Shown here in pieces: positions 41,030 through 45,132 of a DNA stretch of 64,000 nucleotides. How positions within the stretch are numbered: position 1 is the stretch's first letter; each line of letters starts with the position of its first letter. The position numbers were made by a program, and so were the translations under genes. The notes beneath the pieces are model-generated. The model searched no databases. It was not told the origin of the DNA and was given only the letters and a program-made list of their open reading frames with translations. The stretch is taken from the NCBI GenBank assembly GCA_965231155.1, contig OZ246418.1, positions 498,496 to 562,495 of the forward strand. Reading direction: 5' to 3'. The stretch comes from an uncultured Candidatus Saccharibacteria bacterium. Its GTDB lineage: Bacteria > Patescibacteriota > Minisyncoccia > UBA6257 > 2-01-FULL-56-20.

Positions 41030-41698
41030 ATGGGACAACACGAGAAGCAGAAACGATTTATTTTGATAGGTGTGCTGTCGTGCGCCTTGGTTCTTTGGGG
41101 AGCTATCTGGTATTTTGGGGCGTTCCCTCAGCTGGGGTCCCAAGAACAGGAGGTCTATCCAGAGTTAGTGGTGATCAATGAGGTTAGAGGTCCTCAACCA
41201 GGGGATCCCAGACCGAAACCACTTCCGGTGTTGCCGTTTGAGATTGACTGGCCGGCTTCGAGTACGATTGATCGAGAACTTTTCAGCTCTTTTTCTGAAG
41301 AGACTCGTCAAATGATAAGAAAATCTTCGGCACCGGTGCTATTACCTAGCACACCCAGGGCGCCTACTTCAACGCAGATTTCTTCTTTTGTGGGTGGTTA
41401 TGTTTTTGCTATAGACTACCCAGATATTCCGATTATTTCTCGTGTGATCAGTTCGGGTGAGGGTGGCGGAAAGGCACCGTCTACTCCATCTCCTTACATG
41501 CCTGACAGAATCAGGGGGTTACCGGCAGACATCGGAGAAACAGAAGGAGGTTGGTATGCAAACTGGAATGAATTCGGCGCTGCTTACTACCTCGAGATCC
41601 GTTGCTTCCGAGTGCCCAGAGACCCTCGATGCAGGAGCGATCAGTATCTTCGTTCTATCGTAGAGAATCTCCATTATGTTGGAGGGAAAGGAGAGTAG
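41030..41698 (+). CDS. hypothetical membrane-anchored protein (222 aa)
   Basis: N-terminal signal anchor (FILIGVLSCALVLWGAIWYF), then a Pro-rich linker and an uncharacterised domain. Immediately upstream of the giant peptidase gene. Confidence 0.45.
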   Translation: MGQHEKQKRFILIGVLSCALVLWGAIWYFGAFPQLGSQEQEVYPELVVINEVRGPQPGDPRPKPLPVLPFEIDWPASSTIDRELFSSFSEETRQMIRKSSAPVLLPSTPRAPTSTQISSFVGGYVFAIDYPDIPIISRVISSGEGGGKAPSTPSPYMPDRIRGLPADIGETEGGWYANWNEFGAAYYLEIRCFRVPRDPRCRSDQYLRSIVENLHYVGGKGE

Positions 41699-41763
41699 AA
41701 AATCTGGGGATTGATAGTAATTGTTTTTTCAACGCAACCCACAACCAGAGGAAGGAGTGAAGG

Positions 41764-44700
41764 ATGAACTTACAAAAGAAAGGAGGATTCCTCCTCCTGA
41801 TTTTTTTCGTTATTTGGTCGATTCCGGTCGAAGCAGAGTATTTTTCTTATGCATCTCCAGGGGATCTTATTCCTCAGAGCGGTGTAGGAAAAGTCGATTT
41901 TACTGTCCATGCACCGGGAATTCGTTTTCCGGTGGAGTTTGGACCGGTCTACGCTAACTCTCAAGTATGGCGGCCTGGTGGATATAGATATGGAGGAGGG
42001 AGTCCTAGTGATCCTTCCAACTTCAAGTATCCTTGGCAGGACAACTTTTGTGAGACCAGGGGAAGAGATTGGTCTACCCCCGAGTGTCCTAATCAGGATG
42101 GAGGGCATCACCAGGGTCAGGATAACCGTCCACCGACATATGTCGATAAGACTTACTGGGCGGTGGCCACCGCAGATGGGACTATTTCGTATGGTGCCAA
42201 CGACTATGTGGTTACCCTGACAACTCCTGGTAACAGTTCTGATAGTATAACTTATCGTTATATGCACCTTGATCCTTCAAGTATTGTAGTTGCAAACAAT
42301 GCCGTTGTGAGAAAGGGAGATCGGATAGGGAAGATATCAAATTGGTTTGGTGGGGAGTTAACAACTATCCACCTCCATTTCGATATCCAGAAGTTTGTCC
42401 CTTCAATAGGGAGAACTACTTGGGTATCTCCCTATATGTCCCTGGTGCGTTCATACGAGAGTTTGATTGGCTATCAGGGGTACACCATTAACACGTCCGT
42501 CAAGGTGACGGGTATAGGCACGGGCTTTTTGCCTGTCTATGGTTCGAGTGCCTGCGGATCGGTTATCGGTTACCGAGGGGAGACTTCGGTTGCTGTTGTT
42601 CTCGATGGTCCAGTCACCTGTGGCGGAGAAGTCCGCTGGAGAGTACGTTTTACGGACTGTCTTGAAGGATGGGTAAGCGGTGAGTGGCTTAAAGCTACTA
42701 ATTGCTTAGGAGCTCTTGTGAATCCAAGAGATGGAGCTTCGGTTAGTTTTCCGGCGCAGTTTACGAGTGGTTGGTCTGGGGATTGTCGTAATGCTACGTT
42801 GGCCTTCTCAAACGGCCAACAAGAAGTGGGATTTCCGATCCCTTCGTTCTACGATCAAACGATTTCGGAAAACTACTGGAATCAGAGTATCGTTCCTGTT
42901 ATTGGAAATGGTCCAACCTACAACTGGTCAGTTGGAGAGAACTTTTGCGGGAGTTTTTTTCCTAGAACTTCCTGGCAGAATTTTCAAAAGGTGTCTAGTT
43001 GTGTGTCTTTGGCAGCGCGGAGTGGTGGATTCGCCCGAGCGGCTAATCAGTGTGGTGGTGCAACGCCGACCTCGACGCCTATTCCGGCTATGACTTTCAC
43101 GCCAACGAGGACGTGGACGCCATTGCCTGGAGGATACTCACCAACACCAGTTCCGAGTCTGACTCAGATTCGGACGCCAACTAATACGCCATTTCCGACA
43201 CCGCCGCCAACGGCAACATCGCTTCCAGGCACACCAACGCCAACTGCCGGCTCGTTGATCTTTGTCGATAATTTCAATCGTCCAGATTCGACGGTGGCAG
43301 GGAACGGATGGAGTAATGTACATCCCTCGATTTTCGTGCAGGGGAATCGATTGGTTGGTTCGGGAATTATTACTCGCGACCTACCATTTAATTTTCCTAT
43401 TCGTATTAGGGGGCGTTTGATCGGTGGTGGTTGTGGTACAGCAGGAGGAGTGAGTGATCATTTCGATCATGAACTCAAGCTTTTTACCGACCAGTATGGT
43501 TCTGGCGGTTATGGACTGTACTTCTTCCGTCCTGATGAAACCCAGTTCAATTCCCAGATTGCTCTTCTTGATGGGAACATTATCACAGATCGAGTCTACT
43601 CTTTTCCACAGTTTGCGAATGGAGTGGATATCGATTTTTCAGTGTTCTCTGATGGAAGTGTTCGGGGTGTAGCAGGTAGTCAGGGCATAGACTTTCCTTT
43701 TGTATTTCCAGCAAGGGAGATGCAAAAGAGAGGTAATTTTTTTATGCTCCGGCTTCACTGGAACTGTCCCGAGAGATTTCTTGCTTGGGATGATTTAGTG
43801 GTAGAGGCAGTTGCTTTGCCAACTCCGTCTCCGGCTTGGAGTAGTGTGGCGACTATGACGGCAACTTGGACATCGGTGATGACTCCTACCAGCACATCTT
43901 TACCGACTATGACACCCACGGTGAGTTTCTTGCCAACAGTCACGCCGACGATGGTCAAAGGTGACTGTTGCACGGTTCACGATTCTCCGGGGTGTAATGT
44001 CCCAAGTTGTGAGGATTGGGTAAACTCTGTGATTAATCCGGGTGGGACTTCCATTTGTTTTCAGGTGGACGCATTAAATCCGGATTGGCGGGTGAGTTGC
44101 GTGAATGCTGCATTCCGTAATCCTCAGGCTTGTCCTTGTGCTCCGACATTCGCGCCAACTGCAACGACAACCTCAACGAGGACGCCGACGGAAACACCGG
44201 GAGGTGGTTGTTATCAGGTTCACGTTGGATCAGGGTGTGATGACGAGGAGTGTGAGGTAAAAGTGTGCGAAGCTGATTTTTCTTGTTGTGGTGGCGGTTC
44301 TAGTCCTCGTGGCTGGGATCAGTCGTGCGTGAATGCGGCAAACTTTTTTTGTAGGCCGACAAGCACGCCAACAGCGACAGCCACTGCATCTGTTACCGCG
44401 ACAGCAACAGCAACGGTGACTCTGACGCCGATTATTCTGCCAACGCCGACAGCTACAGAGATATCCTTAGAGATCCCTCTGTGTTCTTTTGAGCCGTTGG
44501 TTCATTGTATGGTTTTTGACCAGGCATCTCTTCGGATCAGAGAAACACGTGTGGGTATGAAAACCCTGTGGAGAGGTTCTCGTTATGGCGAAGGAGAGTC
44601 TCAGTCCCTTGGGAATCCTCTGTCTTCCACCAACTACGCCATCTGTCTTTATCAAGGAGAGTCTACATCTCTGGCTCTCGGTGGGACGGTTGAAGCTGGT

Positions 44701-44985
44701 CAGGGGTGGCGATTGCAGGGGAGTGGGTTCTCTTACTCATCTGATCTTAATCAGATGAAGCTGAGAATCTCCCTGAGTCATCACGTTCTCTCGGATCATT
44801 TCCTTGTTCGTCTTCGTGATCGAGAGGATCGAGTGGAGATTGATTCTGTGACTCCTCTTATCTTCCAGATTCAGAACTCCGAAGGAAGGTGTTGGAGTAG
44901 TACGTTCCAACCGCCTTTTCGGACGAGTGGTTCGTCAAAAACATCGGCTCTTTGTGAGACAAGAACGAGCCCTTGCTCTCCTTAG
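41764..44985 (+). CDS. giant secreted peptidoglycan hydrolase-like protein: N-terminal M23 (LytM) peptidase domain, SH3b-like domain, P/T linkers and two Cys-rich repeat modules
   Basis: Signal peptide. M23 pattern GGHHQGQDN...ADGTISYG...YRYMHL...VRKGDRIGKIS...TIHLHFDIQ (HxxxD ... HxH). YTINTSVKVTG...VIGYRGETSVAVVLDG...VRWRVRF...GWVSGEWL resembles a bacterial SH3 fold. Long TPTPT linkers and two related Cys-rich modules follow (around nt 43970-44160 and 44200-44350). Strong RBS (ggaaggagtgaagg) before the ATG. Confidence 0.5.
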   Translation: MNLQKKGGFLLLIFFVIWSIPVEAEYFSYASPGDLIPQSGVGKVDFTVHAPGIRFPVEFGPVYANSQVWRPGGYRYGGGSPSDPSNFKYPWQDNFCETRGRDWSTPECPNQDGGHHQGQDNRPPTYVDKTYWAVATADGTISYGANDYVVTLTTPGNSSDSITYRYMHLDPSSIVVANNAVVRKGDRIGKISNWFGGELTTIHLHFDIQKFVPSIGRTTWVSPYMSLVRSYESLIGYQGYTINTSVKVTGIGTGFLPVYGSSACGSVIGYRGETSVAVVLDGPVTCGGEVRWRVRFTDCLEGWVSGEWLKATNCLGALVNPRDGASVSFPAQFTSGWSGDCRNATLAFSNGQQEVGFPIPSFYDQTISENYWNQSIVPVIGNGPTYNWSVGENFCGSFFPRTSWQNFQKVSSCVSLAARSGGFARAANQCGGATPTSTPIPAMTFTPTRTWTPLPGGYSPTPVPSLTQIRTPTNTPFPTPPPTATSLPGTPTPTAGSLIFVDNFNRPDSTVAGNGWSNVHPSIFVQGNRLVGSGIITRDLPFNFPIRIRGRLIGGGCGTAGGVSDHFDHELKLFTDQYGSGGYGLYFFRPDETQFNSQIALLDGNIITDRVYSFPQFANGVDIDFSVFSDGSVRGVAGSQGIDFPFVFPAREMQKRGNFFMLRLHWNCPERFLAWDDLVVEAVALPTPSPAWSSVATMTATWTSVMTPTSTSLPTMTPTVSFLPTVTPTMVKGDCCTVHDSPGCNVPSCEDWVNSVINPGGTSICFQVDALNPDWRVSCVNAAFRNPQACPCAPTFAPTATTTSTRTPTETPGGGCYQVHVGSGCDDEECEVKVCEADFSCCGGGSSPRGWDQSCVNAANFFCRPTSTPTATATASVTATATATVTLTPIILPTPTATEISLEIPLCSFEPLVHCMVFDQASLRIRETRVGMKTLWRGSRYGEGESQSLGNPLSSTNYAICLYQGESTSLALGGTVEAGQGWRLQGSGFSYSSDLNQMKLRISLSHHVLSDHFLVRLRDREDRVEIDSVTPLIFQIQNSEGRCWSSTFQPPFRTSGSSKTSALCETRTSPCSP

Positions 44986-44988
44986 TGT

Positions 44989-45017
44989 ACACCTAGATTT
45001 TTTCTAGGTGTTTTTTT
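44989..45017 (+). terminator. rho-independent terminator
   Basis: acacctag-attttttt-ctaggtgt hairpin followed by ttttttt. Confidence 0.7.
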
Positions 45018-45132
45018 ATCTACTATTGACTAATTATGTTTAATATATTATAAACAAAACCAGCAAGCTCTGGAGGTCTGACTAGTCCGTGAGGGCCAGA
45101 AAGACAGGAGCTAATAATGAGGAGGGTGTCTT

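Follow-up and report, generated by a model that had tools for sequence, protein, structure and literature searches.

M23 Peptidases in Described Systems

Among secreted peptidases, the M23B bacteriocins lysostaphin and ALE-1 join a catalytic domain to a C-terminal SH3b targeting module; immunity to lysostaphin is provided by a FemABX-type enzyme which alters the wall of the producer, and not by a co-transcribed membrane partner. In the reference list of a review (PMC9662197), the zoocin A factor Zif appears as FemABX-like; the review also describes an active-site-occluding pro-region as common in M23 enzymes, and latent members of the family include LytM, LasA, Csd3, and ShyA/ShyB. In Phaeobacter, the genes tdaR1-R3, of which tdaR1 and tdaR2 appear to be homologous to those described below, are placed after the tda operon (PMC7497051, PMC5765558) and have been tied to antibiotic self-resistance rather than to lysis (PMC7497051).

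The locus considered here lies in a window of 64,000 nucleotides (the whole stretch of DNA that was analysed). The organism belongs to the CPR, within the Patescibacteria near Ca. Liptonbacteria, in a Paceibacteria-like lineage: its SecY shows 85% identity with a 'Patescibacteria group' protein and 72-73% with Ca. Liptonbacteria, L30 is missing between S5 and L15, and the contig measures 808 kb, in agreement with the CPR-like organism proposed in an earlier note on this DNA. Taken as a whole, the locus is best explained, at slightly better than even chance, as an operon encoding an exported M23 peptidase controlled by its partner, with a foreign envelope as the likelier target.

The Gene Pair and Its Transcription Unit

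Two open reading frames were called on the + strand of the window, to which all the coordinates below refer: the first (41030-41698) encodes 222 aa, by homology a TdaR1-like protein predicted to be signal-anchored and extracytoplasmic, and the second (41764-44985) a predicted secreted multidomain M23 peptidase of 1073 aa. The co-oriented frames already pointed out in the earlier note are real, the peptidase recurring identically on an NCBI contig of 808,089 bp and in two independent Logan assemblies. The genes probably form a two-gene operon, since a Shine-Dalgarno-like sequence read directly from the DNA (GGAAGGAG, 41750-41757) precedes the ATG of the M23 gene by 6 nt, the spacer of 65 nt is replaced in the orthologues by a 4-nt overlap, and a terminator-like hairpin with a 9-bp stem followed by a T-run (44989-45021), 4 nt past the M23 stop codon, would mark the operon end. 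Both the Shine-Dalgarno site and the hairpin had been overlooked at first reading.

The M23 Catalytic Domain

The peptidase begins, as had been claimed, with a predicted signal peptide (residues 1-24; 41764-41835; cleavage at ...IPVEA/EY), whose hydropathy maximum at residues 9-27 is the only hydrophobic segment found on the Kyte-Doolittle scale in the whole protein. The M23 domain (residues 26-236; 41839-42471) is of a TdaR2-like subfamily with a conserved N-terminal extension, RFP.E..P.YANSQV...NF.YPW.DN.CE.R....C, and its motifs H116xxxD120, H168, and H203xH205, defined according to the review cited above (PMC9662197), are invariant in 18 homologues. The Pfam M23 score (25.7 bits, E 1.3e-5) falls below the gathering threshold of 28.7; membership of the family holds nonetheless, because it is supported both by the family profile, which retrieves M23 sequences of the PDB (3nyy, E 2.4e-10, with GHQGQD, YLHM, and HLH aligned), and by the fold, modelled by AF2 with a pLDDT of 85-98 across the core and matched by Foldseek with probability 1.0 to LytM (2b13/4zyb), DipM (7qrl), and lysostaphin (4lxc/5nmy). 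The M23 core with an HxxxD...HxH pattern read from the letters in the earlier note is therefore upheld by residues, profile, and structure prediction, the Pfam search falling short. The protein is most probably a secreted zinc peptidase of the LytM/lysostaphin type in which the zinc and catalytic residues are all present.

Some features of the domain would also suit a protease which, as LasA and pseudoalterin of the M23A group do, cuts Gly-rich proteins instead of murein, candidate substrates being proteins from the surface layer, sheath, or matrix of a host, whether bacterial or archaeal: the elastinolytic M23 protease 6ik4 is the third-best PDB sequence match (E 3e-9), the N-terminal extension, with its Cys pair C96 and C108, is atypical of LytM-type enzymes, and some Parcubacteria live on archaea (PMC12356512), which lack murein. 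Murein endopeptidases, however, are the best structural and profile matches, and the family is described as one of common peptidoglycan hydrolases (PMC9662197), so that a protein-directed activity is quite improbable. The archaeal association of some Parcubacteria also counts against the murein-targeting explanation preferred here.

Accessory Modules of the Peptidase

With lysostaphin and ALE-1 the protein shares secretion, the same M23 zinc and catalytic residues, and the logic of a catalytic domain combined with a targeting module; with lysostaphin it also shares a small β-barrel right after the catalytic domain, the full-length bacteriocin aligning co-linearly over 238-260 columns in Foldseek. 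It differs in giving no SH3_5 or SH3_3 HMM signal, in an identity to lysostaphin of 19-21% only, and in having four more modules as well as an N-terminal extension that is long and conserved. The enlarged, lysostaphin-like architecture of the earlier note thus stands as regards secretion and an intact M23 domain with extra modules, while its SH3b component finds no HMM support. Indeed, Pfam gives no SH3b match in the M23 protein even at E<=10, and a profile search against PDB sequences is equally empty; the SH3b-like label of residues 240-312 (42481-42699) therefore rests on the structural model, a moderately confident AF2 barrel of 8 strands (pLDDT 67-82), and on the lysostaphin alignment, and is putative.

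The following stretch (residues 316-410; 42709-42993), with an AF2 pLDDT of about 26 and 21-27% identity to the orthologues, in whose alignments the counterpart is a second SH3b-like repeat, may be a degenerate second SH3b-like region. It is followed by a Cys-flanked helical hairpin, C413..LAARSG..ARAANQC430GG (residues 411-432; 42994-43059), which is 55-68% identical in the orthologues and for which AF2 predicts helices at 412-419 and 423-429 with low pLDDT. The long Pro/Thr linkers reported previously are four in number and consist of P+T+S for 53-79%.

A central all-β domain (residues 496-686; 43249-43821; F.D.FNR.D...GNGW...) is predicted by AF2 with 12 strands, though the model is weak (pLDDT 35-80); it exists as had been noticed, but spans about 190 aa instead of the roughly 250 given before. 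The domain is common only to the orthologues and to one S8 peptidase, in which it occurs as a cassette with the Cys-rich module, and has no match in Pfam or among PDB sequences. Both of the Cys-rich modules described earlier are present, with unequal support: the first (residues 734-797; 43963-44154), unmodelled by AF2, is an insertion in this protein only, missing from all three orthologues and from P0045, and matches the module HMM weakly (domain E 0.0086), whereas the second (residues 812-866; 44197-44361), with 8 Cys in the pattern C..H...GC.D..C...VC....CCG.GSSP.GW..SCV.AA...C, is 55-76% identical in the orthologues and is predicted to be small and helical (two helices, AF2 pLDDT 64-76), Pfam giving no match.

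The protein ends with a β-sandwich of about 170 aa (residues 905-1073; 44476-44982; AF2 pLDDT 75-93), which is a member of a large, recurrent, undescribed, and uncharacterised family: the family comprises at least 162 representative clusters (E<=1e-3), is covered by no Pfam model, lies within 15 aa of the C-terminus of the protein in 148 of 157 cases, and is accompanied by diverse domains. The domains that had been called novel are therefore in part recurrent, as the C-terminal family and the S8 peptidase cassette indicate. The C-terminal domain, the second SH3b-like region, and the helical hairpin had not been picked up in the earlier note.

Models of the β domains match the ConA-like lectin/glucanase fold, the fold tools not distinguishing whether the source is the central or the C-terminal domain, and at least one of the two is predicted to have this fold, which is that of L-type (legume/ERGIC-53) lectins, galectins, and phage receptor-binding CBMs; identity to these is only 5-13%, and the comparison with lectins gives no sequence-level match. 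Overall, in the CPR lineage the peptidase has been lengthened by a β domain, a C-terminal β-sandwich, a single or double Cys-rich helical module, and one SH3b-like barrel or two, with Pro/Thr linkers joining them.

The Partner Protein and the Conserved Module

The partner has a single hydrophobic segment, N-terminal, at residues 10-28 by hydropathy; its family conserves the features WPxSSTID...P(V)PVLxP...W..W.E.G..Y.L...C....C....L.YVGGK, and no match is found in Pfam, NCBIfam, or PDB sequences. The partner gene lies directly 5' of the M23 gene in the CPR orthologues. With a starting profile built from the three CPR partners alone, 58 of the 80 non-CPR loci searched yield a matching ORF (E<=1e-3); after iteration, 77 of the 80 have a partner ORF just 5' of the gene of the M23 subfamily and on the same strand, the partner ORF ending within -271 to +345 nt of the start of the M23 match. 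In locus L018 two such pairs occur in tandem, while in two further loci, L038 (Pararhizobium) and L042 (Bradyrhizobium), a single fused polypeptide contains both partner and peptidase; no third gene near the pair recurs in more than 9 of the 80 loci. The module spans Myxococcota, Alpha- and other Proteobacteria, Campylobacterota, and others, and its holders include the free-living, non-predatory Brevundimonas, Bradyrhizobium, and Phaeobacter. The upstream gene, introduced in the earlier note as a membrane-anchored hypothetical, correctly as to its orientation, is shown by this synteny to be a conserved partner and not an incidental neighbour.

In the two fusions the partner is N-terminal, at the position of the pro-region of latent M23 enzymes. 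Here and in the 77 loci, by contrast, what may be the pro-region stands as a protein of its own, anchored in the membrane or lipidated, and the partner has no sequence similarity to known pro-regions; inhibition by the partner is only inferred.

A tethered partner bears on the possibility that the enzyme is a scavenger with no specific host, digesting groundwater peptidoglycan debris or dead cells to feed an auxotroph with peptides and amino sugars. The Sec signal, the absence of a recognisable anchor in the M23 protein itself, and the reduced CPR genome would agree with this, and a 'biomass recycling' role has been proposed for other Parcubacteria (bioRxiv 10.1101/2022.04.20.488981); yet a generic digestive enzyme would not be expected to have a membrane-tethered partner that is both conserved and translationally coupled, nor to show fast sequence turnover, and an enzyme that diffuses freely would repay an ultra-small cell poorly, which makes such a role improbable.

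The only studied example of the module is apparently that of Phaeobacter inhibens DSM 17395, where on plasmid pPGA1_262, in a position that directly follows tdaA-E and precedes a gamma-glutamylcyclotransferase gene, a gene for a 193-aa protein (WP_014881724.1, 'hypothetical protein') overlaps by 4 nt, as in the CPR orthologues, that for WP_014881723.1 ('M23 family metallopeptidase'). By gene order, products, and review descriptions, these correspond to tdaR1 and tdaR2. The M23 domains are 47% identical over 209 aa (E 1e-57), the subfamily-specific extension included, the broader partner-family HMM matches the Phaeobacter partner (E 2.9e-14), and both proteins carry N-terminal export signals as in our pair. 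The Phaeobacter M23 protein, however, is a bare domain of 228 aa, against 1073 aa and at least six extra modules here, and neither tdaR3 nor tda biosynthesis genes lie near our locus, where the proposed TDA self-resistance has no counterpart.

The homology raises the question of whether the pair serves stress or antibiotic tolerance, as proposed for tdaR1-R3, whose expression increased the TDA tolerance of E. coli (PMC7497051), by countering collapse of the proton-motive force through hydrolysis of Cys-Gly peptides linked to the gamma-glutamyl cycle. This is the least probable of the readings considered and is already weakly refuted by gene context, neither our pair nor the 80 other loci having a tdaR3 or tda gene nearby; moreover, export signals on both proteins are at odds with a cytoplasmic glutathione cycle, and according to the review what TdaR1 and TdaR2 each do was never determined (PMC7497051).

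Evolutionary Rate and Possible Target

Partner and M23 gene are the fastest-evolving part of the region, changing at least ten times faster than their neighbours at non-synonymous sites and with a dN/dS about ten times higher. Against a close relative, neighbouring genes are 97-100% identical and the pair 63-69% (loci L090 and L091 being treated as one organism by assumption); dN/dS is 0.005-0.07 for the neighbours, 0.22 for the partner, and 0.27 for the C-terminal part of the M23 protein, values which, being all below 1 and with a dS of 0.5-1.6, near saturation, indicate relaxed or diversifying evolution, positive selection not being proven. Against locus L083, identity is 90% for SecY and 69-88% for ribosomal proteins, but 37% for the M23 protein and 27% for the partner. 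Alignments and the module HMM show, in addition, that modules have been gained, swapped, duplicated, lost, or replaced between M23 orthologues.

These rates weigh against a housekeeping autolysin which would remodel or split the producer's own peptidoglycan during growth, septation, or the assembly of envelope-spanning machines, with the membrane partner as its spatial regulator, much as lipoproteins or adaptors control endopeptidases elsewhere among bacteria. Such rates, and the turnover of targeting modules among close relatives, are unusual for a core division enzyme with an unchanging substrate, and lectin-fold modules in a protein of 1073 aa with linkers are expensive for a genome of about 0.8 Mb. 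On the other hand, the catalytic residues are intact, the CPR relatives keep the pair, where contigs allow, in a constant place between secY-adk-map-GT2 and aspS-ndk, and numerous free-living lineages maintain it without any further linked gene, a distribution that a self-wall or regulatory role fits equally well; an autolysin is a rather unlikely alternative, though the likeliest of those considered.

In the partner-controlled, foreign-directed explanation that we prefer, the M23 protein would be exported by the Sec pathway and would cleave peptide cross-links of peptidoglycan. At the membrane of the producer, the partner may bind the M23 domain, acting as an in-trans pro-region, analogous to the cis pro-regions of M23 enzymes, that would confer latency, immunity, or docking, and the C-terminal modules may direct the peptidase to the glycans or peptides that a given cell surface presents. 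Because of the fast evolution and of the exchangeable lectin-like targeting modules, the envelope of a host or prey would be a likelier target than the producer's own wall. A host-directed role, already suggested in the earlier note for a putatively surface-displayed enzyme, is plausible, and host lysis by patescibacterial M23 genes has been published as speculation (PMC9530719, PMC11393006).

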